Below are positions 1,117 to 56,192 of a stretch of DNA of 64,000 bases, one piece after another. The position numbers were made by a program, and so were the translations under genes. Below the pieces are notes generated by a model that was given only the letters and a program-made list of their open reading frames with translations, was not told where the DNA came from and ran no database searches. Numbering within the stretch: position 1 is the stretch's first letter; the number at the start of each line of letters is the position of its first letter. The stretch is taken from positions 1,901,954 through 1,965,953 of the forward strand of contig OX638350.1 in NCBI GenBank assembly GCA_951813325.1. Direction: 5' to 3'. This DNA comes from an uncultured Acidimicrobiales bacterium. Its GTDB lineage: Bacteria; Actinomycetota; Acidimicrobiia; Acidimicrobiales; Bin134.

Positions 1117-2614
1117 GAGTCGGGGCGCCGGAACCCCGTCGGGGGCGCTTCGGAGGAGGGGTGGGCTCTATGCCGAACAGGGCGGCAATATGGGGAACGC
1201 GCTCGGACAGCTTTGTGACCTCGGCCAGCAGCTCCTTGTCAGGATTCTCCGGGACACCCTGAGGCTGCACGGTTCGGCGTACCGGCGAGAACGCCACGGC
1301 AGCCAGCACCGCGATCCAGCGCTTGGTCGGCGTGTCACTGGCCAAGGCCGCGTTGGCCGCCTCGGTCAGCCGGGTGACCATGTCTTGGGGAAGGGGCACG
1401 CCGGCCTTCGGGGGACGGGAACTGAGCCTCAGGGCCCGGATCATTCGGCCGTCGGCCAGCGTGGCGGCCACCTCGGCCAGCCATCCGGCGTGCTCCCGAT
1501 CGACCCGCTCGGCGAGTTTGGCGCGCAGCTCTTCGGCCATGGCCTTGGCCTCGTCGTCGCCGGCTCCGGCCTCGGCAGCCACCACCACCGATCGAAGATC
1601 GCGCAGATCGATCTCGTCGACCTCGGCCAGTGCGGCCTCGACTCGGTCTCGCCATTCTGCGGCTCGCACCCGGGAAAGGAGTTTGCCCGCCGCTACCAGA
1701 AAGTCGTCGCCTGCCTCTTTTGAATCGGATTTCTCTTGCTCTTCGGCTTTGGGGCTGTCTGTGTCGGTTTGGACGGGGTCCTTTTCGGCATTAGCGGCGT
1801 CTGATTGGGACTTGGCCGCGTCCCTTTCGGCATTGGCGGCGTCTGATTGGGACCTGGCCGCGTCCCTTTCGGCATTGGCGGCGTCTGATTGGGACTTGGC
1901 CGCGTCCCTTTCGGCATTGGCGGCGTCTGATTGGGACTTGGCCGCGTCCTTTTCGGCATTGGCGGCGTCTGATTGGGACTTGGCCGCGTCCCTTTCGGCA
2001 TTGGCGGCGTCTGATTGGGACTTGGCCGCGTCCCTTTCGGCTTTCGCGGCGTCGCGGGCCTTCTTGCGCTGGATTTGGAGGGTCTTTTCCACCGAGCTGA
2101 TGCCGTCTCGAACCATCTTCTCGGCCACGGGCTTCTGCTCCTCGGGCAGGCTGTCTATCAACGCCTGACGGTGAGTTCGGCCGGGGCGCAGGCGCTTGGC
2201 TTTGGGGCGGTCGTCCTCGCGGCGAGGCTCCTGGCGATCACGGTCCTTTTGATCGCCTCGGCCGCGGCGATCCTGACGGCCCCTTCGGTCGTCCCGATCT
2301 CGATCCCGGCTTCCTTGCCGGTTCTTGCGGTTGGACACCAGCTGGGTGGTGACCAGCGGTTGATCCCGACCGGAGCCCAAAATCTCCAGCGTCTCGGGCA
2401 TGGGGCGCTTCTTTTTGGATTCAAAGGCCTCGATGATCTCGATACCGTCGATGTGGAACTCGGCCTCAACGGTCAACTCGTCGCCCACGCTGGCATCGAA
2501 GGCGATCAGGTCGCCGCCCATCTCGCCCTTCGGCTCTCGCGCACCGGCGGCTCTCCACGTCCAAGAGCCGTCGGGCCGCTGGCTGGTCAGCTCAATCTCA
2601 ATCCTGCGAGACAC
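1097..2614 (-). CDS. Conserved actinobacterial hypothetical protein with Arg/Asp-rich low-complexity region and 14-aa tandem repeats ([14 protein letters not shown])n
   Basis: Long ORF; structured N- and C-terminal domains with a central repeat array; no enzyme motif recognised. Confidence 0.6.
1780..2040. repeat. Intragenic 42-nt tandem repeat, ~6 near-identical copies (encodes [14 protein letters not shown] units)
   Basis: Unit 'ggcattggcggcgtctgattgggacttggccgcgtccctttc' visibly reiterated with single-nt variants. Confidence 0.85.
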
Positions 2615-3471: not shown

Positions 3472-3873
3472 TCAACACGAGCTGGGGATGCTGAGTGCCG
3501 CTGCGCCGGCGGCCGATCGGCAGGCGACAGAGGTGGTGTGCAACGCCGATACCCGGGTATCCGACACCGCAGCGGTAACCGATACGATCAAGTTGCAGGC
3601 GTCGGCTCTCACCTCGACCGCCACCGGCTGCACCGCTAGATGCTGGATCTGGCTCAGCGCCGCTCGAGCCGCAGCCGCCTCGGCCTCTGATGGGGGAGGG
3701 GACTGGCACCGCCATCCCACCGCAGCAGCAGCCTGCGCGGCCGCGGCCGCGGCTGACTGGGCCGCAGCGTCCGCCGACAATCGAGTGATGTGGCGAACGT
3801 ACAGTCCGGTGATCAAAGCCAATAGGAGCATCAGCAGCATCGCAGTGCGCAGCACCACGAGAGAGGTGGCCAT
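3472..3873 (-). CDS. TadE-like Flp pilus assembly protein
   Basis: N-terminal hydrophobic helix then Ala-rich region; position right after the pilin-like gene in the tad operon. Confidence 0.5.
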   Translation of the reverse strand: MATSLVVLRTAMLLMLLLALITGLYVRHITRLSADAAAQSAAAAAAQAAAAVGWRCQSPPPSEAEAAAARAALSQIQHLAVQPVAVEVRADACNLIVSVTAAVSDTRVSALHTTSVACRSAAGAAALSIPSSC

Positions 3874-3879
3874 GGGCGG

Positions 3880-4047
3880 CTAGTGGTGTGTCGTGGGTTT
3901 AGCGCCGTGGATTGCGACGGCAGCGGCGTTCCTCGCAAGGCGCACTGACGCAGCCATACTTCCAGCGTACGGCAAGGAGGGGCAACGCCGCGAGGGGCGT
4001 CGATGCCTAGCAGGACACGCGCGAATAAACCCACGACACACCACTAG
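3880..4047. mobile_element. MITE-like element copy 1 (~160 bp, 22-bp perfect TIR ctagtggtgtgtcgtgggttta/taaacccacgacacaccactag, flanked by CTAG)
   Basis: Near-identical copies at 31131-31298 (same orientation, 1 mismatch) and 41901-42068 (inverted); terminal inverted repeats read directly. Confidence 0.8.
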
Positions 4048-4244
4048 CCGCAAGTACTCGTGCTCACTGTCCAGCTGCCCCCCACTGCCTCGCACAGCGT
4101 CTCGCTGGTGATCCGGGATTTGTCGATGTTGTCCCCTGTTTCAGGGGCGTTGTCGCTGAGTTGGGCGTAGACGATGATGGCCACGATGGCAGCAGCGGCG
4201 ATGCCAACCACGATCAAGATCATCTGGACGATTGCTGATTGCAT
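4044..4244 (-). CDS. Small hydrophobic membrane protein, candidate atypical Flp-type pilin
   Basis: 66 aa, TM helix, good RBS (gaggaag) right after tadC; lacks the canonical G/xxxxEY prepilin motif, so the pilin call is positional. Confidence 0.4.
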   Translation of the reverse strand: MQSAIVQMILIVVGIAAAAIVAIIVYAQLSDNAPETGDNIDKSRITSETLCEAVGGSWTVSTSTCG

Positions 4245-10536: not shown

Positions 10537-10674
10537 TTGCCCTCCGTTCGAAATGTCTCGATGGGGGCCTATGAGGCCGATAATCCTGGCTGCCGCACCA
10601 GTGGAGGTGACTTTACTTCATATCCACTCATATGTCTATAGCTAATTTTGATAATTATCATTCCCAACACCCAA

Positions 10675-10698
10675 GAAAAGCGTTGAGAATACATGAAC
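10675..10698. repeat. Left copy of an 18-bp direct repeat (aagcgttgagaatacatg) bounding a ~7.4-kb island
   Basis: Exact 18-nt match with 18089-18110; AT-rich motif in a high-GC background. Confidence 0.7.
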
Positions 10699-11216
10699 CG
10701 TGCTGTCGCTATCCCCGATGGGTTCCAGCGGGCTCAGCGGCTTCGGGATGTTCGTCGGTTTCGCCACTTTCTCACTGGTCATGGGGGTCGGCTCCATCAC
10801 GCGCCGACACTCAAACTAGTTAGAGCAACCGCCCCACTGCTCTGAAATCGCGGTCCTCACACCGTGGAGCGCGTCGTCTCTTGGGCGCGCAATACGGAAA
10901 TCTGCTGCCTGCTGCCTCTAGCTGAACAGCACCCAGGCGACCACGAGGAAGCTCGCCGCCTGGAACATCGTCTCTAAGTTGTCTAGCGCAAACCCGAGCA
11001 CCTGCATTTGCCTGCCTCTAGCGCTGGATGGGTGTTACAGCACCATTGTCCCCAACGCTGTGACAGTTCCCCGATGCCAGTGGCAGCGCCCTTCGAGGAC
11101 CGCGCCGCGGTCCAGAGGTGGATTTGGCGGCTGCTGGAATACTGCGTGCGACGTAGCGGGCACCCGCTGACGGCCTTGGTGAGGGGGTGCCCAGAGACGA
11201 GCAGGATTGACGGACC

Positions 11217-12706
11217 ATGGTCGAGTTGCGGGACTACCAGGTGAAGGCCATAGCCGACATCAACGCACTTTGGCCGTCTGCCAGATCGATCATCCTGCAG
11301 ATGGCGACCGGCGCCGGCAAGACGATCACGGCCTCGGCTTTGCTCAGGGGGAGTTCGAGTCCATTCCCAACCTTGTGGTCGGGTGGATGGTGCATACGGG
11401 CCACCTGCGGAAACAGGCAGCCGAGGCTTTAGATCTGCTCGGTGTGCAATGGGTTGACTGGTCCACTGTTCGTGCCTCACAGCGCCGTTGGGAACCAGGG
11501 CAAGCGCATTGCTTCGGCTCCACGATGTCCCTGCCGCCTGGCCCTGCCACCCGCGACGCATTGCTGATCGTGGACGAATGCCATCGCTCGGCGAGCGACA
11601 CCTACGCCAAGCAGATGAACCGGCGCGGCGGCAGGAACCGTCACCGCATATGGGGCCGGTGCCTGGGGCTGTCGGCGACTCCGGCCCGATACGGCTGGCC
11701 CGATGCAATCAGCCGCTCTCAGGGGTTGTTCGCGCGGCAGTGGGATGCGATGGTCTGCGGCCCGTCGCCCGCCGAACTGGTCGAGGCGGGCCACCTGGCC
11801 GACATTGTGGTGAAGTCCATAGACGAAGCGGGCGGCGACTGGGAGGTGCTGAGACCTGACCCGATGCGCGCCAGCGGGTTCTCGTCGGCATCGGAACAGA
11901 GATGGGAGCGCACGCTGTCGGTCGACGCGGCTGCGGCCATCATCAAGCGCGTGGAGCCGCGCCCGACCATTTGGTTCTGCGCGCCAACAGCGGCAGCAGC
12001 TCAAGTGGTGAAGCTGCTGGGGCGCAGCAGCGCCAAGATCCTCGCCGAAACGTCCTACAGCGAACGTCTGGACCTCTTCGACGCGTTCAGGGAAGGCAGC
12101 ATCGAGCACCTGGTGACCGTGCGGGCACTGCTGGAGGGTACCGATATCCCCGCAGCGAAGCGGATCGTCCAGCTAGCTCCGTCGCGCTCTCGGGTGCTGC
12201 TGTCTCAGGCGGCAGGCCGCGGAAGCCGACCGCCAGGCGTGATGGAGCTATGCGACTTCTCCCAAAGCTGGTCCCACATCGGAGCGCACCCGCTAGACGA
12301 CGTGCCATGGCACCTCTCCCTCGATCCGACTGCCGACTCTGAGCATGTCCATTCGGCCACAGCGCGCACCCGCACCTGCCCCACGCCAGGCTGCGGAACA
12401 GTCATATCGCCGCGCACGCAGCGCCTCTGCCCCACATGCAATTTTGAGGTAGTCCGCCGATGTACGGCGTGCTGGCAGCCCATGTCCGAGGACGCTGAGG
12501 ACGGCACTCACCGCCGCTGCCGCAAATGCGCCGCCGACGAGCGCTCCCTGCACACTGAATGGGCACGGCGCCACGGAACCGAGCCGCTGCCAGATCGCGA
12601 CATCACCGAGGATTCCGGCGGCGAGACGATCGCCGCTAGTTTGGAGGCCCTTGAATCTCTCCGAGCGGCGGCAGCGGTCCTTGAACAGCACACAGGACAG
12701 AGATGA
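11217..12706 (+). pseudogene. SF2 DEAD/DEAH-box helicase with C-terminal double Zn-ribbon, disrupted by a frameshift at a G5 run (~11346-11350)
   Basis: N-terminal motifs 'DYQ' and Walker A 'MATGAGKT' lie in frame 0 (ORF 11217-11432). DEAH 'DECH', 'SAT', 'QAAGRGSR' and a CxxC..CxxC tail lie in the frame of ORF 11207-12706. One extra G would restore ...ALLRGEFESIP... Confidence 0.7.
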
Positions 12707-13250: not shown

Positions 13251-14711
13251 TCAGTATTTGTGCCATTGGTCGCCGTGAGGAGGTCGGGTACACCTTTTTT
13301 TGCTCTTGACGCCGATGTGCTGACAGCGGCCTGTGCTCGCCGCAGATGGTGGCGGTGCTATCGGCTTGATCTGGTCTGGCAAGTCGGAATCGAACGAATT
13401 GGGAGGCAGCGGGGGGACGCCGGCCATCTGCGACAGGCCAGCGCAATGGGACGCGCGGTATTCGATCCGGTCCGCCAGCTTCCGAATCACCTCGCTGCCA
13501 GCGAATTCAGCGGAAAGCGACTGGAGCGCCTGGTCTAAGGCAGATGGAGTCTGCCTGGCCATGTCCTCTGCCCTGGCAACGGCCTCCTCGCCGTCGCAAC
13601 CCATCGACTCCGCCGTCTCGTGCCATGCCGAATGCCTGTCGGCTTTGGCCACCGTGTACTTCTTCCCGATCTTCATGGCCAGCTTCGTCCTGTTGACCGA
13701 ATGCCAGTCAGGCTCGTAGGGGAGCACAGAGGTGATGTCGTACAGGGGGGCGAACCGCACCGTGCCCCCCCTCAACAGGAAAGAATAGTTCTTGGCGTGG
13801 GCATCGGTCCCGACGATGATCCAGTTGTAAATCAGAGCATCCAGGAACCTGTGGGCATCGCTGTCGGGTTGGGAGCTGTGCTTTCTGATCGACTCCGCGA
13901 TCTGTTGCGGCGAGGGGCCGCCGTCGCCTTGGTATTTGTCGTCGGGGTGGACCCCCAGTGCCTGGCACATGTCCTCTTGGTGGATTCTGGCCGTTTGCCC
14001 GTCCGCGCCAGCAAAGCGGTCGAAGCGACTGATGACGATGCTCTGGATCGGCCCGAAGCTGGCTATCTGGGTTTGAACCGCCAGCAGCCCCAGGTTCGAT
14101 GCTGTTTGCAGGCATACATGCTCATTCAACGCCTGGTCCGGCAAGTCCGGGTCATTCATCGTCGGCTTGATGATGTGCGTGCTCGGCTCCGCACCCATTG
14201 GAATTCCGTACTTCCCCCCAGAGAACACGACGGCCGTTTTCGCTTGAGCCCCAGAGAGGGAGAAACGCCCAAAGTTGCTGCTTTCTGGCCCGTGCCAAGT
14301 CGTTCTGTGGTCCCTGAGGCTCTTGATCAGAGTGACGAGCCGCTCCTCCGTCAGCCAGTCAACGCTGCCTCCTCGCCCCATCAGGCCACCGACTTCATCT
14401 GCTGAGCAGAACTGCACAGCGCCAGCGCAATCATGCCCCACTGGGCTGGCCAGTATCGCTATCGCGCTGCTGCCCTTGATGCCGAACTTGCGTCGCCACT
14501 CTCTCCGCACTTCCAGGTTGTCGGGCAACAGACCCTCCAGCCAGGAGTCAACATCGTGCTGGCCCGCCACAAGCGGAATGCTCACGGAGAGCGGGGTGGA
14601 GAGCGGGTCGGCCAGGTACTCGTCAAAGTAGGAGAACGTAGCTCGGCCCGCACGACCTCCGACTGCTGCGCCTGCGGGCTTGCCATGCACGATGACTTCA
14701 AGACGGGTCAT
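13251..14711 (-). CDS. hipA: HipA-family serine/threonine kinase toxin
   Basis: HipA N-terminal domain, 'SLSGAQAK' and catalytic 'GTDAHAKNYSFLL' motifs. Confidence 0.85.
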   Translation of the reverse strand: MTRLEVIVHGKPAGAAVGGRAGRATFSYFDEYLADPLSTPLSVSIPLVAGQHDVDSWLEGLLPDNLEVRREWRRKFGIKGSSAIAILASPVGHDCAGAVQFCSADEVGGLMGRGGSVDWLTEERLVTLIKSLRDHRTTWHGPESSNFGRFSLSGAQAKTAVVFSGGKYGIPMGAEPSTHIIKPTMNDPDLPDQALNEHVCLQTASNLGLLAVQTQIASFGPIQSIVISRFDRFAGADGQTARIHQEDMCQALGVHPDDKYQGDGGPSPQQIAESIRKHSSQPDSDAHRFLDALIYNWIIVGTDAHAKNYSFLLRGGTVRFAPLYDITSVLPYEPDWHSVNRTKLAMKIGKKYTVAKADRHSAWHETAESMGCDGEEAVARAEDMARQTPSALDQALQSLSAEFAGSEVIRKLADRIEYRASHCAGLSQMAGVPPLPPNSFDSDLPDQIKPIAPPPSAASTGRCQHIGVKSKKRCTRPPHGDQWHKY

Positions 14712-18030: not shown

Positions 18031-18088
18031 CCGAAACCGCGTTCAGAAGAGGAAAGGCCCGGGCCGCTGATGACTGCCGTAACGCCCG

Positions 18089-18110
18089 AGAGAAGCGTTG
18101 AGAATACATG
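18089..18110. repeat. Right copy of the 18-bp direct repeat (aagcgttgagaatacatg)
   Basis: Exact match to 10677-10694. Confidence 0.7.
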
Positions 18111-18617: not shown

Positions 18618-19334
18618 GTGTTCTCCCGTCGGGGCGGGTCTGACCCGAGTCGCGACCGGCCTTTTGTGCCTTTCGGCGGAGTTCACCGACCCTTGGGAGG
18701 TTCTATGACACCGAGGGGGTATCCCGCAGAGTTCCGAAAGCGTGTGGTCGATCTGGTAGAGGCGGGCCGTCCGGTCGCCCAGGTCGCGGCGGAACTGGGG
18801 ATCAGCGATCAGTCGATCTACACGTGGCGGCGGCAGGCGCGTTTCGACGCCGGCGTTGAGCCGGGCATGAGCACGGAGGAGCATGCGGAGTCAGCGGCGC
18901 TGCGAAAGCGGGCTCGCGAGCTTGAGTGTGAGTTGGCGATTCACCGGCGGGCGACTGAGCTGTTGAAGGCCGATGTCGATTCAAAATGGTCCGCAGCCAT
19001 CCGAGTGATGGCCGCGGAAGGGCTTCCGATCGAGAAGGCATGTTCCGTGTTGGGAGTGTCGGTGTCTGGCTACTACAGCTGGCTGAGGCGCCCACCGTCG
19101 GCGCGATCGATCAGACATGCGTGGTTGAGTGAGGTGGTTGGGCAGGTCCACGCCAGCTCCCGTGAGACCAACGGGGCAAAGCGAGTTCACGCGGAGTTGA
19201 CCCCTGGCCTGGGGAGGGGCCGGAACGCCGACCTGGCTACCTACGATGACACAAATGGGGGTCAAACTGTCTCAAGAACGTGGCGAACCCCAGGACGCAT
19301 TCGCCAAGTGCCCGAGAGCGGACAATTTGGCTGA
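18618..19334 (+). mobile_element. IS3-family transposase remnant: OrfA (HTH) fused in-frame to the first ~65 aa of OrfB, DDE catalytic domain missing
   Basis: 'MTPRGYPAEFRKRVVDLVEAGRPVAQVAAELGISDQSIYTWRRQ' (IS3 OrfA) then 'CSVLGVSVSGYYSWLRR...GAKRVHAEL' (OrfB N-terminus), then unrelated tail and stop. Confidence 0.7.
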
Positions 19335-28733: not shown

Positions 28734-28870
28734 GGTGATACCTCTTTGGTGATGCGAAAGCGGTTGACCGGGGACACTAGCAACCGCGCGGCGGCTAACT
28801 GCACCATTATTCGCGGGAATTGCGATCCTGCTTGAGAAAACAGGCTTTTGCGGCCCTACTCTGGCGGCGC

Positions 28871-31039
28871 GTGACCTACCAGACGTTTGGAAGTGTTGAG
28901 GTGGCCGGCCCTTTGGCCGAATTGGCCACCCGCCGGCTGGCGCCGGGCACCGGTGTGGACCCTGAAAGCTTTTGGGCGGCGTTTGCCGACATGGTCCACA
29001 GAACTCGGCCGCGAATTCAGGCCTGCCGCGACGTGCGGGACGACCTCCAAGCCCGCATCGACGCCTGGCACCAAGACCCCGAGAGCCAGCCCGAGGAGGC
29101 GGCCGCCTTTTTGCGGGCCATCGGCTATCTGGTCGACGAACCCGATCCGGTGCCGGTGGCCACCGCGGGGGTCGATCCCGAGATTGCCTCGCTGTCGGGG
29201 CCGCAGCTCGTGGTTCCGGTGGACAATGCCCGCTATGCCCTCAATGCGGCCAACGCCCGCTGGGGCAGCCTCTACGACGCCTTGTACGGCACCGACGCCA
29301 TCGACGAGTCCGAGGGCGCGGGGCGGGCCGGACCGTACAACCCGGTGCGGGGACAACGGGTGATCGACCGAGTCCGGGCCTTGTTGGACCGCCATTTTCC
29401 GCTGGCCTCAGGATCGCACGCCGACGCTGGGGCCTATGCGGTGTCCGACAGCGGATTGCGGGTGGAGCTGTCCGGCAACGCATCCAGCGGGCTAGCCGAT
29501 CCTGGGCAGTTCGCCGGCTACACCGGCGAGGCATCGGCCCCCGCCACCGTGCTGCTGCGCAAGCACGGACTCCACATGGAGCTGGCCATCGATCGCGGCC
29601 ACCGGATCGGCCGGAACGATCCCGCCGGAGTGGCCGACGTGATGATGGAGTCGGCTCTCACCACCATCATGGACTTGGAGGACTCGGTGGCCGCGGTGGA
29701 CGCCGACGACAAGACCTTGGCCTACAGCAACTGGCTGGGCCTGATGCAGGGCAACCTCGCGGCGTCTTTTGCCAAAGGCGGCCGGGCCACAACCCGTCGT
29801 TTGAACCCCGACACCGCGGCGATTTCCCCATCGGGGATGCCCATGACGGTGCGGCGGCGCAGCGTCATGCTGATCCGCAGCGTCGGCCTCCATATGGACA
29901 CCGACATCGTGCGGGTGGACGCCCAGCCCGTTCCCGAGACTCTCATCGATGTGGCGATGGCCGCCTGGTGCGCCATGCACGATCTCGTCGGAAGCGGCCC
30001 CCATCGAAACAGCCGTGCCGGGTCGGTCTACATCGTGATGCCGAAGCTGCACGGTCCCCGCGAGACCGCGCTGGTGAACGAGCTGTTCACGGCAATGGAG
30101 GACATTTTGGGAATGGCTCCCAACACGCTGAAGATGGGAATCATGGACGAGGAGCGCCGCACGTCGCTGAACTTGGCTGCCTGCATCGCCGAGGCCTCCG
30201 AGCGGGTGGTGTTCATCAACACCGGGTTCTTGGACCGCACCGGCGACGACATCCACACCAGCATGGACGCCGGCCCCATGATCCCCAAAGCGGAGATCAA
30301 GACCTCGGAGTGGCTGACCGCCTACGAACAGGCCAACGTGGCTGTCGGGCTGGCCTTGGGATTGCCGGGGCACGCGCAGATCGGCAAGGGCATGTGGGCC
30401 CGGCCCGACGACATGGCCGCCATGTTGGACGAGAAGATCGGCCATCCCCAAGCGGGGGCGTCCACCGCATGGGTCCCCTCCCCCACTGCGGCCACCCTTC
30501 ACTCGCTGCACTATCTCGAGACCGACGTGGCTGCTCGCCAGGCCGAGTTGGCGGCAACGCCATGCGACCGCGACGCCGCCGTGCAGGCCATGCTGACGCC
30601 GGCGGTGCTCCCGCCCGACCGCGAGCTGTCCCCCGCGGCGATCCAGCGGGAATTGGACAACAACGCCCAGGGCATTCTGGGCTACGTGACCCGGTGGGTG
30701 GGCCAAGGGGTGGGCTGCTCCAAGGTGCCCGACATCGACGACGTCGCCCTGATGGAAGACCGGGCCACGCTGAGGATCTCCTCCCAGCACATCGCCAACT
30801 GGCTCCACCACGGCCTGCTGTCCGAAGAGCAAGTTGTCGAGGCCATGCGGCGAATGGCCGCCGTGGTTGACGGCCAGAACGCCGACGACCCCGACTATGA
30901 CCCCATGAGCCGCGATTTCGCCGCCAGCATCCCGTTTCGCGCCGCCGTGGCCCTCGTGATCGAGGGCCGCGACCAGCCCAACGGCTACACCGAGCCCATC
31001 CTCACCGCGCACCGCCGCCGCCAGAAGGCTGCCGGCTAG
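28871..31039 (+). CDS. glcB: Malate synthase G
   Basis: '[24 protein letters not shown]' and overall GlcB pattern; likely GTG start ~28871 (the ORF track frame opens at 28820). Confidence 0.85.
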
Positions 31040-31130: not shown

Positions 31131-31298
31131 CTAGTGGTGTGTCGTGGGTTTAGCGCCGTGGATTGCGACGGCAGCGGCGTTCCTCGCAAGGCGCACCGAC
31201 GCAGCCATACTTCCAGCGTACGGCAAGGAGGGGCAACGCCGCGAGGGGCGTCGATGCCTAGCAGGACACGCGCGAATAAACCCACGACACACCACTAG
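31131..31298. mobile_element. MITE-like element copy 2 (same orientation as copy 1)
   Basis: One mismatch versus copy 1; CTAG at both ends; lies between convergent glcB and the flotillin gene. Confidence 0.8.
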
Positions 31299-31315: not shown

Positions 31316-32686
31316 TCAGTCCTCGCCTTTGACGGTGGCTTCATCATCGAGCTCACCGAGGTAGGCGGGCAGTTTGATTCCCACCTGAGCGGCCAAGTCG
31401 TGGATGGGGGGCAGGGAGCTGGCCAGGCCGGACAGGAAGTCAGCGGTGCTGCCGCCCTTGCCGGTGCTGCCGCTCCCCGAGTCCCATACCGTCACTTGGT
31501 CGATCTTCAGATTCGAGATGGCCTTGACCTGCTCGGCCACCAATGCCGGCATCTGCTCGGCGATCAACAGCAGGGCAGCCAGCTGGGGCTCGCCTCCAGC
31601 ATTGTCCACCATCGCCCCAAGGCCCTCGGCTCGGCGGCTCAGCAGAGCCAGCAACCCCAGCGCCTCGGCTTCCATGAGCAGGCGCTGACCGTCGGCCTCG
31701 CCGCCCTTTACCAGCCTGATCCGGTCGGCCTCGGCCTCGGCCAGAGTGCGGACCCGCTCCCGCTCCACTTCGGCGGGCACCACAATGTCGGCCTCCTGTG
31801 TGGCCTTGTCCCGGGAGGCCCGAGCCTGCTCGGCGCCGGCCTCGGCCGCGAATGAATCCTGGGCCGCTCGGGCTTGGGTGACTCGCTCGGCGGTGACGGC
31901 GGCCCGCTCAGCCTCGGCCTCCTGCTGGCGGCGCTCGCCGTCGGACTGGGCGATCACCACCTGAGATTCGTTCTCTCCCTCGGTGGCGGTGGCGTTGGCC
32001 TGGGCCACCTTGATACGCCGCTCCCGTTGGGCCTCGGCGGCCCCGATGTCGCCGTCGCGCTCCTGCTCGGCCACCTTGATCTTGGCCTCGTTGATGGCCC
32101 GGGCGGCCGCTTCCCGCCCCAACGCGTCGATATACCCCGACTCGTCGGTGATGTCCTGGATGTTCACGTTGATGAGCCGCAGCCCGACTTTGCGCAGCTC
32201 GATCTCCAGCGACTCGGTGATGTTGGTGATCAGCTTCTCCCGGTCGGCGTTGATCTCCTCGATGGGCATGGTGGCGATAACCACCCGCATCTGGCCGAAG
32301 ATGATGTCGCGGGCCAGGTTCTCGATTTCCACCAGGCTCAGCCCCAGCAGCCGTTCGGCGGCGTTCTGCATGACGCCGGGCTCGGTGGAGATCCCCACGG
32401 TGAACGTAGCCGGGGTATTCACCCTGATGTTCTGCTGGGAAAGCGCCCCTTGGAGCTTGATCTCGATGGGAATGGGGGTGAGATCCAAAAAGGCGTGGCC
32501 CTGGATGACCGGCCAAACCAGGGCGCCGCCGCCGTGGAGGCACCGGGCCGACTGGCCCTGCCCGCCTATCCGGCCGTAGATGACCAGCACGCGGTCGGAG
32601 GGGCAGCGCTTGTAGCGGGAAGAGATCCACAGCAGCGCGATGAGAAGTATGACAATGAGGCCGGCAACGAGGGCTATAACAGCCAT
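31316..32686 (-). CDS. Flotillin-like SPFH/band-7 protein
   Basis: N-terminal TM plus SPFH domain, long Ala/Glu-rich coiled coil. Confidence 0.8.
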   Translation of the reverse strand: MAVIALVAGLIVILLIALLWISSRYKRCPSDRVLVIYGRIGGQGQSARCLHGGGALVWPVIQGHAFLDLTPIPIEIKLQGALSQQNIRVNTPATFTVGISTEPGVMQNAAERLLGLSLVEIENLARDIIFGQMRVVIATMPIEEINADREKLITNITESLEIELRKVGLRLINVNIQDITDESGYIDALGREAAARAINEAKIKVAEQERDGDIGAAEAQRERRIKVAQANATATEGENESQVVIAQSDGERRQQEAEAERAAVTAERVTQARAAQDSFAAEAGAEQARASRDKATQEADIVVPAEVERERVRTLAEAEADRIRLVKGGEADGQRLLMEAEALGLLALLSRRAEGLGAMVDNAGGEPQLAALLLIAEQMPALVAEQVKAISNLKIDQVTVWDSGSGSTGKGGSTADFLSGLASSLPPIHDLAAQVGIKLPAYLGELDDEATVKGED

Positions 32687-36918: not shown

Positions 36919-36952
36919 CCGCGTGAGCACCTCCGAGCCCGACACCGGATCG

Positions 36953-37088
36953 CCGATACGAGCCATTCCCATGGTCGTTCCCCTGAAAACGTGAGCGCGA
37001 AAATGCCCCGAGGCGAGTCACCGATACGAGCCATTCCCATGGTCCTTCCCCTGAAAGCATGAGCGCGAAAGTGCCCCGAGGCGAGTCC
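36953..37088. repeat. 68-bp tandem duplication (2 copies, ~94% identical) spanning the start of the downstream gene
   Basis: ccgatacgagccattcccatggtc[g/c]ttcccctgaaa[ac/gc][g/a]tgagcgcgaaa[a/g]tgccccgaggcgagtc[a/c] repeated head-to-tail. Confidence 0.85.
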
Positions 37089-41598: not shown

Positions 41599-41904
41599 GT
41601 GATTTCCAAAAGCTTGCTAGAAAAACTCGAGAACGCGGCGGATGATTGGCGGTGCCAGGCGGCCTGCCGCGATACCGACCCAGATCTCTTCTTCCCCGTA
41701 GGCAGCACAGGCTTGGCTCTAGAGCAGATCGAGTCGGCCAAGGTGGTGTGCCAGACCTGCCTCGCCCTGGACGATTGCCTGGAGTTCGCCTTGGCCACCA
41801 ACCAGGACTCCGGCATCTGGGGCGGCACATCAGAAGAAGAGCGACGCATGCTCCGCCGCCGACGGGTGGCAGAGCAGCGCGAAGCCGCTATCATCTCGGC
41901 CTAG
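41599..41904 (+). CDS. whiB1: WhiB-family transcriptional regulator (WhiB1-like)
   Basis: 4-Cys cluster 'CQAAC...C..C' plus 'GIWGG' turn; convergent with pdtaS as in M. tuberculosis. Confidence 0.8.
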   Translation: MISKSLLEKLENAADDWRCQAACRDTDPDLFFPVGSTGLALEQIESAKVVCQTCLALDDCLEFALATNQDSGIWGGTSEEERRMLRRRRVAEQREAAIISA

Positions 41905-42068
41905 TGGTGTGTCGTGGGTTTATTCGCGCGTGTCCTGCTAGGCAGCGACGCCCCTCGCGGCGTTGCCCCTCCTTGCCGTACGCTGGAAGTATGGCTGCGT
42001 CGGTGCGCCTTGCGAGGAACGCCGCTGCCGTCGCAATCCACGGCGCTAAACCCACGACACACCACTAG
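41901..42068. mobile_element. MITE-like element copy 3 (inverted orientation)
   Basis: Reverse complement of copy 2; its terminal CTAGs supply the TAG stops of whiB1 (41902-41904) and pdtaS (42065-42067). Confidence 0.8.
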
Positions 42069-43552
42069 CTGCCGGTAGGGGCGCGGCCCCCAAGAAGAGG
42101 GATCGCCACCTCCACCACGGTCCCGGGGCGGGGCGGATCCCCCTCGCCGTCGCTCATAGTGATGCTCCCCCGAAGGTCGGCGCCCACCAGATTCCCTACG
42201 ATGGCGATTCCCAGCCCATTGGCGTTGTCCACGTTGAACCCGGGCGGCAGTCCAACCCCATCGTCGGTCACCCGCACCTCCAACCAGTCGCCGTCGTTGT
42301 CCAATTCGATCAGCACCTGCCCGCCGGGCGGCTCGGGATAGGCATGGTCCATGACGTTTTGCAGGCATTCGTTGAGCACCACTGCCAGGGGCGTGGCCAC
42401 ATCGGCAGCCAGTTCCCCGGCATCGCCGGTCACTTTGAACTCCACCGGCCGGTCGGGACCAGTCAGCCCCTCCTCCACCATCCGCACCAGCGACCGCACG
42501 ATCTCCACGAACGGCACGTCGCTGCTGGCGTCGCGCGACAAGATCTCGTGAACGATGGCGATCGCCCGAATGCGCCTCACCGACTCCTCGATGGCGTCCC
42601 GAGCCTCCGCGGCAACGGCCCGGCGACCTTGCAGGCGCAGCAGCGAGGACACCGTCTGAAGGTTGTTCTTCACCCGGTGGTGTATCTCGGCGATGGTGGC
42701 GTCCTTGGACATCAGCAGGCGATCCCGGCGGCGAAGCTCGGAGATGTCCCGCACCAACACCAACGCGCCGGTCAGCTCTCCCCTGCCGATCAGGGGCAGA
42801 CAGCGCAGCACCACCGTGCCCCGATCGCCGTGCTGGATCTCCTCGGTCTGGGGCAGTCGAGAGGCGAACGCGGCCCGGATGGCCCGCTGCTCCAGGCCGA
42901 TCTCCGCCAGTCGGCGGCCCTCCACGTCGCTGTGGAGACCGATGCGGTGCAGGGCCGAGGCGGCATTGGGAGAAATCAGCCGAACTCGGCCTGATGCGTC
43001 CAACAGCATCAAACCGTCGCCCACCCGGGGAGACTCCTCTGTCTCGATGTCATCCACTGGGAAGGGGTACTCCCCTTCGGCAATCATGGCCGCCAGCCGC
43101 CGGAACAGCTTGAAGTAGCTCATCTCCAACTCGCCGGGGTTGCGCTGGATATCGGGATCGAACTCCCGAGCCATCACCGCGATCACCTCCCCGTGACAGC
43201 TGACCGGCACGGTGAGCGTGCGGATGCGGGGTTGGTCGGCGTGGCCGATGCGCCCGCCGTCGATGATGCGGCCCTCCCGGTAGGCCACGTCCACGAGCGG
43301 ACGCTGGTCAGGGGTGAAGCGAGCCCCCACCAAGTTGTTGCGATGGACAGACCGAGCTGTGGTGGGCCGGATCTGCCCCGCAATGGCATAGCTCTCCGGA
43401 CTGCGAATCCTGCGGCCGGCGGGCACGTACAGGAGCAAGTCGGCAAAGGAAATGTCGGCCAGCGGGGCCCACGTCCGCATGAGCCTCTGGAGATGGTTCA
43501 GGCGCGACTTGGGAAGGCCGGGTGCCAATTCCTCCAGGCTCGCCATCGTCAA
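42065..43552 (-). CDS. pdtaS: PdtaS-type sensor histidine kinase (GAF/PAS plus HisKA_2)
   Basis: H-box 'EIHHRVKNNLQTVSSLLRLQ', C-terminal HATPase; synteny with whiB1. Confidence 0.8.
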   Translation of the reverse strand: MTMASLEELAPGLPKSRLNHLQRLMRTWAPLADISFADLLLYVPAGRRIRSPESYAIAGQIRPTTARSVHRNNLVGARFTPDQRPLVDVAYREGRIIDGGRIGHADQPRIRTLTVPVSCHGEVIAVMAREFDPDIQRNPGELEMSYFKLFRRLAAMIAEGEYPFPVDDIETEESPRVGDGLMLLDASGRVRLISPNAASALHRIGLHSDVEGRRLAEIGLEQRAIRAAFASRLPQTEEIQHGDRGTVVLRCLPLIGRGELTGALVLVRDISELRRRDRLLMSKDATIAEIHHRVKNNLQTVSSLLRLQGRRAVAAEARDAIEESVRRIRAIAIVHEILSRDASSDVPFVEIVRSLVRMVEEGLTGPDRPVEFKVTGDAGELAADVATPLAVVLNECLQNVMDHAYPEPPGGQVLIELDNDGDWLEVRVTDDGVGLPPGFNVDNANGLGIAIVGNLVGADLRGSITMSDGEGDPPRPGTVVEVAIPLLGGRAPTGS

Positions 43553-46280: not shown

Positions 46281-46355
46281 TGGCTCGGGAGGGAGGACTC
46301 GAACCCCCAATGACGGGACCAGAACCCGGTGTGTTGCCAATTACACCACTCCCGA
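46281..46355 (-). tRNA. tRNA-Gln (anticodon CTG, inferred)
   Basis: Cloverleaf folded by hand: acceptor TCGGGAG/CTCCCGA, D arm GTGT-AATTGGCA-ACAC, anticodon loop TTCTGGT, T-loop GGTTCGAGTCC, encoded CCA; sits beside gltX. Confidence 0.65.
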
Positions 46356-47937: not shown

Positions 47938-48482
47938 TGGTGAGTCAGCAGCTTGGATCTGTCCGCGGCGCAGGCGGTCTCAACCTCGCTGGGCGCCATC
48001 CGCAGAACCGCTTCCGGAACCAGGCCCACCAGGTGCCGGGCCTCGGCATAATGGTGGGGATGGCTGACGCCGGCGAACAAATCCTTGCGCCAGCCCACCA
48101 GCATCTCGTCGGGAACAGGGGGAAGAAAGCCGAATACCCGGAAAGCCACCTCTAGATCGGCGGTCACCGGAGCCCGACCGAAGCAGGCCGCCCGCTTCAA
48201 AGCCACTCCCAAGCAGCCGGCAATGGCATCGGCGGCGTGCTCTCCCGGACCCAGCAGCAACTGGCCTTCAAATCGCCGGGCCAGCCGCAGGGCATACCCC
48301 TGATCGGGTCCGGGCACGCCCCGCCCGGCACCCGTGGGCTGCCCTTCAGTCAGCTCCGCCGGCCGGTCAGCCAACCATGGTTGGGGCCGCCGCGGCGGCG
48401 AGACGTAGTGGCGGTCGGCTACCGCGGTGTCGTTGGGGACATAGTCAGGCGCGGCCATCACTGTCCTCCGAATCTCTGACAT
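47934..48482 (-). CDS. Conserved hypothetical protein
   Basis: ORF track; start region tandemly duplicated. Confidence 0.4.
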   Translation of the reverse strand: MSEIRRTVMAAPDYVPNDTAVADRHYVSPPRRPQPWLADRPAELTEGQPTGAGRGVPGPDQGYALRLARRFEGQLLLGPGEHAADAIAGCLGVALKRAACFGRAPVTADLEVAFRVFGFLPPVPDEMLVGWRKDLFAGVSHPHHYAEARHLVGLVPEAVLRMAPSEVETACAADRSKLLTHQ

Positions 48483-48506
48483 AGTCAGGCGCGGCCATCA
48501 CTGTTC
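48443..48506. repeat. 26-bp unit 'acatagtcaggcgcggccatcactgt' duplicated with 38-bp period over the start codon of 47934-48482
   Basis: Two exact copies read directly. Confidence 0.8.
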
Positions 48507-50174
48507 TCAGCTTTCCTTGTCGCCGTGATCGCCGTGGAGCAGGCCGTAGACCAGGCTGTCCACCAAGGCCTGCCAGCTGGCTTCCACGATGTTGGCGGAC
48601 ACGCCGATTGTGGTCCAGACCCGGTCGCCGTTGGTGGAGTCGATGATCACCCGAGTCACCGCCGCGGTACCCGCGGCGGTGTCCAATACCCGCACCTTGT
48701 AGTCGATGAGACCGATCGACCGGAAGGCCGGATAGCGGTCGCCCAATGCCATCATCAGGGCCGCATGCAGGGCGTTGACCGGGCCGTTGCCCTCGCCGGT
48801 GGCCACTTTGCGCTCGCCCCCCACCTGGAGCTTCACGGTGGCCTCGGTGTCCATTTCCACCGCCACCTCGTTCCAGGCCCGGGCCCCGGTGCCCGACCGG
48901 TGCTCGGTGGACACCTTGAACGACTCCAGCTCAAAGAATGGCTGCGTCCACCCCGAAGCCCCCCGCATCAGCAGCTCCAAAGAGGCATCGGCCACCTCGA
49001 AGTGGTACCCGGCGTGCTCCAACTTCTTCAGGGTGTCCACGATCTCGCCGACAGCCTTGCCGTCGAGGTCGAGCCCCAATTCCCGGGCCTTTATCTCCAC
49101 CGTCGAGCGTCCGGCCATCTCCGACACCACGAATCGGGTGCCGTTGCCCACCGCGGCCGGATTGATGTGCTCGTAGGCGTCGGGGCGCCGGGCGATGGCG
49201 CTGATGTGGAGGCCGGCCTTGTGGGCGAAAGCCGACGAGCCCACATAGGCCTGCTGGGGATCGGGCGTGAAGTTCACCAACTCCGCCACGTGGTGCGACA
49301 CCGCGGTGAGCCGCTCCAACCGATCGGGGGGAACGGTCTGCACCCCCATCTTCAAGCTGAGGTTGGCGATGATGGGCACGAGGTTGCAGTTGCCGGTGCG
49401 CTCGCCGTAGCCGTTGATGGTGCCCTGCACCTGGATGGCTCCTCCCCGCACCCCGGCCAGGGCATTGGCCACTCCGCACCCGGTGTCGTCGTGGAGGTGG
49501 ACCCCCACCGGGGTGTCCAGGTAGTCCACCACCGCGCCCACGATGTCCTCCACCCGGGCAGGCAGCGAGCCCCCGTTGGTGTCGCACAGCACCAGCCGGT
49601 CGGCTCCGGCCACCGCAGCCGCTTCCAGCACCGCCAGGCTGTACTCAGAGTTGTCCTGGTAGCCGTCAAAGAAGTGCTCGGCGTCGAAGAACACCCGCAT
49701 GCCGTTATCCTTCAAGAACTTCACCGAGTCGGCCACCATGGCCACCCCTTCGTCCAGGGTGGTCCGTAGGGCCTCGAGGACGTGGTAGTCCCAGCACTTG
49801 CCCACAATGCACGCCACCTCGGTGCCCGAGGCCACCAGATTGGCCAGCGTGAGATCCACATCGGTTTGCCCCTTGACCCGGCGGGTGGAGCCGAAAGCCA
49901 CCAGGGTGCTCGTCTCCAAAGCGAGTTCGTCGCGGGCTCGGGAGAAAAACTCGTCGTCTTTGGGATTGGAACCGGGCCAGCCGCCCTCGATGTAGTGGAC
50001 GCCGAGAGAATCGAGCTGGCGGGCGATGCGCAGCTTGTCCTCCACCGTGAGGGATATCCCCTCGAGCTGGCTCCCGTCGCGAAGCGTGGTGTCGTAGATC
50101 TCCACCGAAGCGGGGAGGGGTCGCCTTTTCCCCGGGTCAGCAGGGCCGGCCGGCCCTGCCTCAGCGGTCGACAT
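48507..50174 (-). CDS. 2-isopropylmalate/citramalate synthase family protein (CimA/LeuA-like, second paralog)
   Basis: 'IYDTTLRDGSQ' plus TIM-barrel DRE-TIM motifs and LeuA-dimer-like C-terminus. Confidence 0.75.
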   Translation of the reverse strand: MSTAEAGPAGPADPGKRRPLPASVEIYDTTLRDGSQLEGISLTVEDKLRIARQLDSLGVHYIEGGWPGSNPKDDEFFSRARDELALETSTLVAFGSTRRVKGQTDVDLTLANLVASGTEVACIVGKCWDYHVLEALRTTLDEGVAMVADSVKFLKDNGMRVFFDAEHFFDGYQDNSEYSLAVLEAAAVAGADRLVLCDTNGGSLPARVEDIVGAVVDYLDTPVGVHLHDDTGCGVANALAGVRGGAIQVQGTINGYGERTGNCNLVPIIANLSLKMGVQTVPPDRLERLTAVSHHVAELVNFTPDPQQAYVGSSAFAHKAGLHISAIARRPDAYEHINPAAVGNGTRFVVSEMAGRSTVEIKARELGLDLDGKAVGEIVDTLKKLEHAGYHFEVADASLELLMRGASGWTQPFFELESFKVSTEHRSGTGARAWNEVAVEMDTEATVKLQVGGERKVATGEGNGPVNALHAALMMALGDRYPAFRSIGLIDYKVRVLDTAAGTAAVTRVIIDSTNGDRVWTTIGVSANIVEASWQALVDSLVYGLLHGDHGDKES

Positions 50175-55613: not shown

Positions 55614-56192
55614 TCAGGCCAGGCCGACGGCCAGGATGGTGCCCAAGATCGGCACTGCGAGCCCTATCAGCGTGAACACCGTGGTGCGCATCTGCTTGGC
55701 GAGCTGAAGCGCTATCTCACCCTGAAATTCCTTGTTCTCGGCGCGAAGCGTCTTGAACTCGGCGGTCATCTCGGTACGGATATTGGCGAACTCGGCATAG
55801 ACCTTGGCGAACTCGGCATGCACCTTGGCGAACTCGGCGTGCACCTTGGAGAATTTGCTGTTCATCTCGGTGCGGAGGCGGTCTTCGCCGGCTCTGACAT
55901 CGTCTTTGGTGGCGAGATCGTGCCAGTAAACGGGGGGCAGGCTCTCCATGAGGGTTCTGGCCTCCTCTTTTCCCAGCACCTCGCTCAAACGGTTTATGAG
56001 CACCACGCGCCGTTCCTCGCCGATTGGCTCACTCGCGGGCATTGCCAGCCTCCTCGGATGATCTTGTCTCTTGGAGGAGGACTGATCCACGTCCCCGAGT
56101 GGCTTGCCCAGCACTCTACCGTTCGCCTTCTTGCCCTGCAACAGCTTCGTGTCGGTAGTAGCTATCGTCAGGTTCAGCAGGGTACCGGGCAT
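55614..56192 (-). CDS. DUF1640-like coiled-coil membrane protein with 7-aa tandem repeats (AEFAKVH)
   Basis: 21-nt tandem repeats at ~55786-55860; C-terminal TM helix. Confidence 0.45.
   Translation of the reverse strand: MPGTLLNLTIATTDTKLLQGKKANGRVLGKPLGDVDQSSSKRQDHPRRLAMPASEPIGEERRVVLINRLSEVLGKEEARTLMESLPPVYWHDLATKDDVRAGEDRLRTEMNSKFSKVHAEFAKVHAEFAKVYAEFANIRTEMTAEFKTLRAENKEFQGEIALQLAKQMRTTVFTLIGLAVPILGTILAVGLA

Follow-up and report, generated by a model that had tools for sequence, protein, structure and literature searches.

A CTAG-targeting miniature inverted-repeat element of sponge-symbiont Acidimicrobiales whose core resembles that of Correia elements

We analysed a 64,000-nt stretch of DNA (hereafter the window) from an uncultured Acidimicrobiales bacterium (GenBank assembly GCA_951813325.1, contig OX638350.1, positions 1,901,954 to 1,965,953 of the forward strand), and in particular a 168-bp unit that occurs three times in it. 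An earlier reading of the sequence alone, the original prediction, had proposed three near-identical copies of an element resembling a MITE (a miniature transposable element with inverted repeats), the third of them inverted; direct reading and alignment confirmed all three at the places given (copies A, B and C; Table 1). The flanks of the copies are mutually unrelated, and a window-wide repeat search found no further copy in the window. The claim that copies differ by at most one base holds relative to their consensus, but not for every pair: A and B differ at one base, B and C at one, and A and C at two (alignment columns 77 and 134). All three copies start with CTAGTGGTGTGTCGTGGGTTTA and finish with its exact reverse complement, as expected from the proposed 22-bp perfect terminal inverted repeats with CTAG flanks. 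This 22-mer, in either orientation, has six exact matches in the window and none in 100 shuffles. Part of the left repeat is target rather than element: either its first 3 nt (C plus a duplicated TA) or all 4 nt (a duplicated CTAG).

The window has a G+C content of 65%, and the closest homologues of its sensor histidine kinase, at 90% and 86% identity, are from Candidatus Poriferisocius sp., a genus of Acidimicrobiales. The kinase/WhiB pair and its neighbours (ParA-like, DUF3107 and GDPD genes) are syntenic across Ca. Poriferisocius species. A T2SSF protein is encoded upstream of copy A, in the Tad-pilus-like cluster. We located contigs of the same species in several ENA metagenome assemblies by exact-protein look-up; the 815-aa MMPL protein and the 133-aa open reading frame (ORF) had no exact database record.

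Table 1. Copies of the element, their neighbouring genes and other features of the 64-kb window (window positions).
Feature	Position	Strand	Remarks
MITE copy A, including both CTAG flanks	3880..4047	+	within Tad-pilus-like operon, between 66-aa pilin-like gene and next gene
MITE copy B (the copy flagged originally)	31131..31298	+	between convergent malate synthase G and SPFH/Band-7 genes
MITE copy C, inverted	41901..42068	-	PdtaS-like histidine kinase and WhiB genes converge on it
Left terminal inverted repeat, CTAGTGGTGTGTCGTGGGTTTA	31131..31152	+	copy B
Right terminal inverted repeat	31277..31298	-	copy B; exact reverse complement of left
Correia-like core, hairpin apex	31175..31246	+	copy B; betaproteobacterial nhmmer profile, shuffle controls, alignment
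Correia-like core equivalent	3923..3995	+	copy A
Correia-like core equivalent	41953..42024	-	copy C
66-aa pilin-like ORF	4044..4244	-	TAG stop in right-hand flanking CTAG of copy A
133-aa membrane ORF	3472..3873	-	start 6 nt past CTAG; 6 nt past pilin stop in empty allele
PdtaS-like sensor histidine kinase	42065..43546	-	TAG stop within CTAG flanking copy C
WhiB-family gene (PF02467)	41599..41904	+	TAG stop within other CTAG flanking copy C
Malate synthase G	28820..31039	+	ends 91 nt before copy B
SPFH/Band-7 gene	31316..32686	-	ends 17 nt after copy B
Truncated IS3-family transposase remnant	18618..19334	+	orfA-type HTH_Tnp_1 and start of orfB; no rve domain
30-nt direct repeats	10666..10695 and 18081..18110		90% identical, 7.4 kb apart
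Helicase-C protein	11207..12706		between the 30-nt repeats
HipA-like toxin	13251..14711	-	between the 30-nt repeats
68-nt unit, two tandem copies	36950..37085		93% identical; apparent gene start inside (CCAT on + strand)
21-nt periodic array	1700..2095		11 registers
21-nt periodic array	55770..55853		3 registers
31-nt direct repeat	48438..48468 and 48478..48508		97% identity, 40-nt spacing; where two minus-strand ORFs meet
tRNA gene	46284..46355	-	sole Rfam gathering-score match in window

The unit has terminal inverted repeats that reach the ends of the element and are conserved in more than 20 other copies, a target duplication visible in filled and empty sites, and a small non-coding body found at multiple non-homologous sites. 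It is a non-coding MITE of 160-162 bp plus the duplicated target, and we put the probability that a non-autonomous DNA transposon is the best explanation, with the evidence taken as a whole, at about 0.9. The family is new and lives in a little-studied lineage, while in kind it is known biology.

The most direct evidence for mobility comes from two empty sites. The copy A site is empty in contigs of the same species from two other samples (L051 and L052) and filled in a third (L053). Over the approximately 2.6 kb compared, L051 and L052 are 99.7% identical to the window up to the pilin stop and 99.9-100% identical from CTAG onward; precisely the 4 nt CTAG are common to both alignment blocks, and 164 extra bases are present in the window. 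The empty allele reads ...ACTTGCGGCTAGCCGCCCATGGCC... and the window ...GCGGCTAG[160 nt]CTAGCCGCCC..., with one CTAG when the site is empty and two when it is filled. The copy C site is empty in a sister species (L022/L023, histidine kinase 90% identical), where the overlap between the kinase and WhiB genes falls on one CTAG, after which the identical GCCGAGATGAT follows. At approximately 30 independent ends the triplet outside GTGG is CTA, except at four, which read CCA (a transition). Insertion is thus strictly at the palindromic CTAG, with duplication of TA or CTAG; because CTAG is a palindrome, a 2-bp and a 4-bp duplication leave an identical product at this target, and mutated copies do not separate them. 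Since genomes of one species that are otherwise identical lack copy A, we conclude that the element is mobile now or was very recently so in a Ca. Poriferisocius-like sponge symbiont; for this copy, the polymorphism contradicts an ancient, fixed position.

We examined the distribution of the element with an exact scan for its 19-nt end in 185,579 species genomes (one genome per species), JGI metagenomes and IMG/VR. Thirteen loci in the species genomes carry this end. Eight are full copies (L001-L004, L006, L007, L011 and L013) at seven distinct sites, L001 and L007 being one orthologous filled site in two genomes, and two are remnants (L008 and L009). All ten lie in metagenome-assembled genomes (MAGs) of Acidimicrobiales, Ca. 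Poriferisocius or 'marine group Sva0996', which are sponge symbionts. The copies from the genome collection are 95-99% identical to those of the window, with flanks that show no alignment to the window at all; over all further sites, metagenomes included, the range is 95-100%. The JGI metagenomes contributed 15 loci with the 19-nt end, among them one additional full copy (L031) and two duplicates of known loci (L034 of L003, L038 of L008), and approximately 12 further element ends lie in metagenome contigs. Altogether, the suggested look for further copies and empty sites in related genomes yielded at least 20 distinct insertion sites outside the window, each in different flanks, in addition to the two empty sites. 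IMG/VR held no exact match to the 19-nt end. Besides copies and remnants of the MITE, the genome and metagenome scans gave only three short unrelated matches. L010:5311-5333 (Verrucomicrobiaceae) and L012:2571-2593 (= L041; Paceibacterota) have a 23-mer in common, TGTCGTGGTGTGTCGTGGGTTTA, of which 19 nt equal the MITE end; they show no other similarity and no transposase nearby by Pfam.

Decayed and rearranged forms accompany the full copies. Truncated derivatives are present at L008, L009, L030, L033 and L039 (the last a 44-nt remnant), and L004 has, 60 nt from its full copy, an isolated left end (1364-1387) that belongs to another, inverted copy. At L029:1830-1895, a CTAG-flanked, 66-bp perfect mini-palindrome joins the left arm of the MITE (positions 1-42) to its own reverse complement, and looks like a hairpin-templated deletion product. 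Hence the predicted recent mobilisation into CTAG stands on two empty sites, within-species polymorphism, more than 20 independent sites at CTAG and truncated derivatives.

Contig L015, of the same species, is 99.96% identical to the window up to copy B, but past the MITE it carries other DNA (L015:4557-7371), with a xanthine/uracil permease and a small membrane ORF; 1 kb beyond the junction (L015:5550-5601) lies a stretch of 52 nt with 88% identity to MITE positions 94-145. Whether a MITE-mediated rearrangement or a chimeric assembly produced this junction, it implies another copy elsewhere: the genome of the window has at least three copies, and the alternative junction implies a fourth. Short-read contigs of the same species break inside copies B and C (L016, L017, L020 and L021), and many LXNJ01 contigs stop at about element position 96, the centre of the hairpin described below, because a dispersed repeat disrupts short-read assembly. 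The L015 junction and these breaks could be taken to mean that the three copies themselves are an assembly or chimera artefact. However, the same sites are filled with the same element in independent ENA assemblies and samples (L014, L018, L019 and L053; L014 holds the filled copy B site of the same species), and in other species, complete MAG chromosomes assembled from long reads contain full copies. The chance that the copies are artefacts, which the original prediction had named as grounds for abandoning it, is in our judgement negligible.

The original prediction described nested palindromes and a highly structured unit. The fold is indeed strong, but it is really one long imperfect hairpin over the whole element, with 64 pairs. 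Folding both strands, as had been suggested, gave energies of -106 kcal/mol on the + strand (z = -11) and -97 kcal/mol on the other (z = -8). Among the 12 full copies, variation gathers in the apical loop and bulges: 9 of 40 unpaired positions are variable, versus 7 of 120 paired positions (Fisher p = 0.005). The full copy of L004 (1137-1304) has terminal repeats with complementary substitutions (GTCTTGGG / CCCAAGAC); this single compensated pair is all the covariation seen, in copies that vary little. Together with the mini-palindrome of L029, these patterns suggest that a hairpin does form, in DNA, RNA or both, and that it is of consequence.

Such a hairpin, with substitutions that avoid paired positions, 95-99% identity across species in non-aligning flanks and a core conserved across phyla (see below), is also what one might see in an RNA family maintained by selection, whether of structured small-RNA genes, the alternative that the original prediction had raised, or of cis-regulatory RNAs. 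Several observations argue against it. The target is duplicated, two sites are empty and copy A is polymorphic within a species; the element lies in both orientations relative to its neighbours and has left many truncated remnants; and conservation peaks in the terminal repeats, as in transposons. Rfam 15 contains no covariance model that matches the unit, at the gathering score or at E<=10, and simple scans of copies A and B and the DNA beside them, not tuned to Actinomycetota, revealed neither a sigma-70-type promoter nor a U-tract terminator. We therefore consider an immobile RNA family very improbable. The hairpin layout, together with the L029 mini-palindrome and the compensated change in L004, both of which suggest a hairpin in vivo, would suit a palindromic element of the REP/BIME-like or IS200/IS605-derived kind (PATE) that a Y1 transposase moves as single-stranded DNA. 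Elements mobilised in this way, however, have no terminal inverted repeats to their very ends and no target duplication, whereas the MITE has 22-bp repeats and duplicates CTAG or TA, and no RAYT or TnpA gene lies near any copy examined; we regard this route as more improbable still.

The choice of target has a consequence for the neighbouring genes. CTAG is approximately four-fold depleted in this 65% G+C genome, with 52 occurrences in the window versus 205 expected from base composition; 9 of the 52 belong to the three copies, and many of the remaining CTAGs contain TAG stop codons. At many sites the flanking TAG closes a long ORF with high third-position G+C (GC3), as in real genes: 496 codons with a GC3 of 0.84 on the kinase side of copy C, 671 codons (0.88) at L003, 509 codons (0.84) and 561 codons (0.71) on the two sides of L011, 143 codons (0.83) at L028 and 592 codons (0.93) at L039, besides the pilin ORF at copy A. 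In MITE-free relatives (L022 and L025) the kinase and WhiB genes are convergent and overlap by 4-14 nt. The duplication gives a TAG to both sides, and convergent genes (copy C and L011) as well as coupled cistrons (copy A) are shown to keep their stops. A parallel exists in IS870, an autonomous element that uses the TAG of its target as its own stop codon. We propose that the rarity of CTAG, combined with the TAG stops within those that remain, would direct insertions to gene ends, and that restored stops on both sides would make insertions tolerable even between abutting convergent or translationally coupled genes. We infer that this regeneration of stop codons is the reason why such insertions persist.

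A DDE transposase that recognises GTGGTGTGTCGTGGGTTTA ends would move the MITE in trans. The proposed search for an insertion sequence (IS) with matching terminal repeats came back empty: no autonomous IS with matching ends (GTGGTGTGTCGTGGGTTTA / GTGGTGTGTCGTGGG / GTGGTGTGTCGTGG) was found in five collections, namely the 185,579 species genomes, JGI metagenomes, IMG/VR, PLSDB plasmids and INPHARED phages, and BLAST of the element against plasmids and phages gave no match to the ends. The cognate IS is likewise missing for Correia and ERIC elements. The original prediction was also right that the window holds no cognate transposase; the transposase-like ORF that it does contain is an unrelated, truncated IS3-family remnant (Table 1) with no ends resembling those of the MITE.

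One candidate parent, L005 from a Latescibacterota MAG, was rejected. It has a 21-nt match to the right end of the MITE (2855-2875) beside a degraded DDE transposase, which belongs to the IS3 family (NCBIfam NF033516, 180 bits versus a cut-off of 160). Relatives of this IS derive from the same ENA assembly series as the Poriferisocius genomes; the intact ones, L026 and L027, have orfA/orfB and the ends TGTGCCTATATTA.../...TACTTGACACA (TGTGCC.../...GACACA). The L005 match lies approximately 60 nt inside the right end of the L005 IS, in coding sequence for ...INKPTTH..., and the right end of the MITE in the same frame reads NKPTTHH-stop. Because the match is internal and the true ends differ, the L005 IS is not the parent. 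The match is probably a coincidence; less probably, the MITE ends could derive from such a sequence. With L005 rejected, the idea that TG...CA ends and a 4-bp duplication indicate the IS3 family is left without support. As IS ends, L008, L009, L033 and L039 were also rejected, all being truncated copies with no transposase.

Because no parent IS with matching ends was found, the transposase family can be judged only from the target. The autonomous elements IS630 and IS870 use CTAG as their target, with duplication of TA, and IS1301, of the IS427 group, duplicates TA in AYTAG. IS5 duplicates YTAR, mostly CTAG (PMC5493358), IS5-derived MITEPsy1 of Pseudomonas syringae duplicates CTAG or YTAA (PMC3189936), and Actinomycetota have IS5-family subgroups with 3-nt targets (PMC2516522). 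MITEPsy1 and IS5 thus resemble our element in inserting into CTAG (or YTAA/YTAR), theirs with a 4-nt duplication, and in that CTAG is an under-represented tetranucleotide. In contrast, neither has sequence similarity to the MITE, and MITEPsy1 has GGAAGG-type ends and a known parent, ISPsy2 of the IS5 family, whereas the ends of the MITE are not GG/GA.

The IS5-family link (IS427/IS1031) of the original prediction survives as far as the target, which is compatible with an IS5-family origin (YTAR/CTAG, TNA/TA) and not exclusive to that family; the parent IS itself is only an inference, and IS630-type enzymes are equally classical for CTAG/TA. An IS630/Tc1-mariner-type helper, duplicating TA inside CTAG, would fit a target that is strictly CTAG and of which perhaps 2 bp are duplicated, and the Correia elements, with a related core, also duplicate TA (PMC2229807). 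Against this helper, the Burkholderiales relatives that share the core (see below) have 3-bp TAA/TTA repeats and a GAG start, which points to the IS5 family (IS1031-like), and no IS630-type element with MITE ends was found. These 3-bp duplications and GAG termini tip the balance, so that an IS5-family helper of the IS427/IS1031/IS5 type is our tentative favourite, at slightly under even odds; the IS630-type helper is the less likely of the two, though it carries real weight, and some other family takes the probability that they leave.

Several points weigh against our interpretation. Mobilisation in trans and the transposase family rest on analogy, no parent IS having been found. The ends of the element read GTGG or TGGT and match neither the G-A/G nor the GAG termini of the IS5 family; the ends of the IS5 and IS427 groups are G(A/G), and the MITE termini (GT... 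or TG...) misfit these. The polymorphism of copy A could in principle be precise excision or recombinational loss instead of a new insertion. Complete MAG chromosomes carry just one or two exact-end copies per 3-4 Mb, a low number that is unusual for a thriving MITE. Finally, any effect of the MITE at the RNA level, considered below, is conjecture by analogy.

The terminal repeats led to no relative, but the interior of the element did, to a relationship that the original prediction had not noticed. A sensitive BLAST search against plasmids matched element positions 44-116 to intergenic, multi-copy sequences of a Ralstonia syzygii megaplasmid and of Eleftheria terrae (approximately 75% identity, E 0.01-0.04 in 7.3 Gb). 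The matched Burkholderiales units are palindromic and MITE-like, approximately 115 bp long, with ends GAGCGGCTAACAAAAC...GTTTTGTTAGCCGCTC and TAA or TTA direct repeats. With one such unit as the query, more than 100 PLSDB records matched in Ralstonia, Cupriavidus (14 places), Paraburkholderia and Massilia, and so did Neisseria gonorrhoeae (E 6e-4), where the matching sequence is a typical Correia element, TATAGTGGATTAACAAAAATCAGGACAAGGCG...GTACGGCAAGGCGGGGCAACGCCGTACTGG...AATCCACTATA.

We assessed these similarities with alignment scores and profile hidden Markov models (HMMs). The Smith-Waterman score of the window element was 45 against Correia (1000 dinucleotide shuffles, 16.8 +/- 2.3, maximum 29), and 58 and 55 against the Eleftheria and Ralstonia units (shuffle maxima 32 and 31); these scores correspond to z = 12-15, and none of 1000 shuffles reached the real score. 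A profile HMM built from eight elements of betaproteobacteria, with no Acidimicrobiia sequence among them, found only the three copies in the 64-kb window, in the correct orientation, at E = 5e-5 (next match 0.77). It scored the real element at 18.7 bits, versus maxima of 8.2 for dinucleotide and 11.6 for palindrome-preserving shuffles (2000 each). In the reverse direction, a profile of the Acidimicrobiia copies detected the Ralstonia (1.6e-8) and Eleftheria (2.4e-6) units, and its two best matches in 49 kb of gonococcal DNA were the two Correia elements there (0.0045 and 0.16), so that the direct core match to Correia (E 0.0045 in 49 kb) is weaker than that to the Burkholderiales relatives. 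A five-way alignment of the core contains the invariant blocks AGGCG, CGCAG.CA, GTACGGCAAGG.GG and CAACG.CG. A degenerate core pattern run on IMG/VR located a core-only hairpin at L054:5665-5775 (IMGVR_UViG_2843690924_000003), with neither Correia nor MITE terminal repeats. It lies just past a stop codon in a 37-kb viral contig of 62-68% G+C, and its sequence is intermediate between the Correia and the Acidimicrobiia core. A second match to the pattern, L055, was rejected as a chance match in coding sequence.

On the strength of these sequence comparisons we conclude that the cores of the MITE, Correia and Burkholderiales elements are homologous, and that their ends are not. Like our element, Correia elements (CREE or NEMIS) are small, non-coding, palindromic MITEs with TA at the insertion junction and length variants formed by internal deletion; the two have the core ...AGGCG..CGCAGnCAnTAC..GTACGGCAAGGnGGnGCAACGnCG... 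and the terminal hexamer TAGTGG in common. The 26-bp Correia repeat (TATAGTGGATTAACAAAAATCAGGAC), however, is absent from the MITE, the inverted repeats are unrelated beyond TAGTGG, and the MITE targets strictly CTAG in an actinobacterium of 65% G+C. It also has no evident IHF-site insert and, by simple scan, no sigma-70-type promoter, so the promoter role documented for Correia is not supported here, and it numbers a few copies per genome versus more than 100 in Neisseria. The approximately 115-bp MITEs of Burkholderiales (Ralstonia, Cupriavidus, Eleftheria and Paraburkholderia; L043, L044, L046 and L048-L050 were examined) give the best nucleotide match to the core (approximately 75% over 72 nt) and fold into a hairpin of the same layout, in which the core forms the apex. 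In contrast to our element, their GAGCGGCTAACAAAAC-type ends resemble Correia repeats, and they duplicate 3 bp, TAA/TTA, not CTAG.

In our reading, the apical ~72 nt descend from an ancestral module common to the Neisseria Correia core and the Burkholderiales Correia-like MITEs. A more speculative proposal, which we consider doubtful, is that this core is a functional, transferable module that has been re-capped with different terminal repeats across phyla, serving as an enzyme or host-factor site or as a hairpin needed for transposition. To our knowledge, no transposase has been assigned to Correia elements since 1988. According to PMC2649163 the mechanism that mobilises them has yet to be determined; the evidence for their TA duplication is a comparison of filled and empty sites (PMC2229807). 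In the literature examined we found no 'Correia-like' element outside Neisseria, Correia being treated there as Neisseria-specific, no description of the Burkholderiales MITE family as a Correia relative and no name for it.

The window contains other repeats and regions of possible interest (Table 1). The 30-nt direct repeats enclose a stretch of lower G+C (0.60-0.63), with genes for a HipA-like toxin and a helicase-C protein, which may be an integrated island with att-like repeats. The two 21-nt periodic arrays are probably heptad-type coding repeats. The tandem 68-nt unit, the 31-nt direct repeat and the tRNA gene complete the list.

An inserted MITE would place a hairpin with a 64-bp stem in the DNA and in any read-through transcript. 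Like the MITE, ERIC and REP elements are repeats that form hairpins between cistrons and at the ends of genes, and they affect the stability of mRNA (PMC10969869); they have no sequence relationship to it, and REPs have neither inverted-repeat termini nor target duplication. To judge from Correia (RNase III cleavage), ERIC and REP elements, the hairpin might protect transcript 3' ends, terminate transcription or be cleaved by RNase III. Copy A would separate the pilin gene from the cistron that follows it, so that their 6-nt coupling is lost and the downstream cistron is left uncoupled. Because copy A is polymorphic, its effect would differ between cells of one species, which makes it a candidate natural switch for pilus gene expression in the Tad-pilus operon.

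In the literature examined we found no MITE reported for sponge-associated Acidimicrobiia, a barely studied host group, and the element is a well-documented case: targeting is strictly at CTAG, both stops are regenerated and the polymorphism is live. It also has a practical side, in that it breaks short-read assemblies of sponge symbionts and can create chimeric joins, as L015 illustrates. The comparison across families raises the question of why the interior of the MITE is better conserved than its ends. A superfamily that spans two phyla narrows the search for the enzyme that mobilises Correia elements, and, if the core is a transferable module, the polymorphic sponge-symbiont population could reveal by co-occurrence the transposase that moves Correia-type elements.

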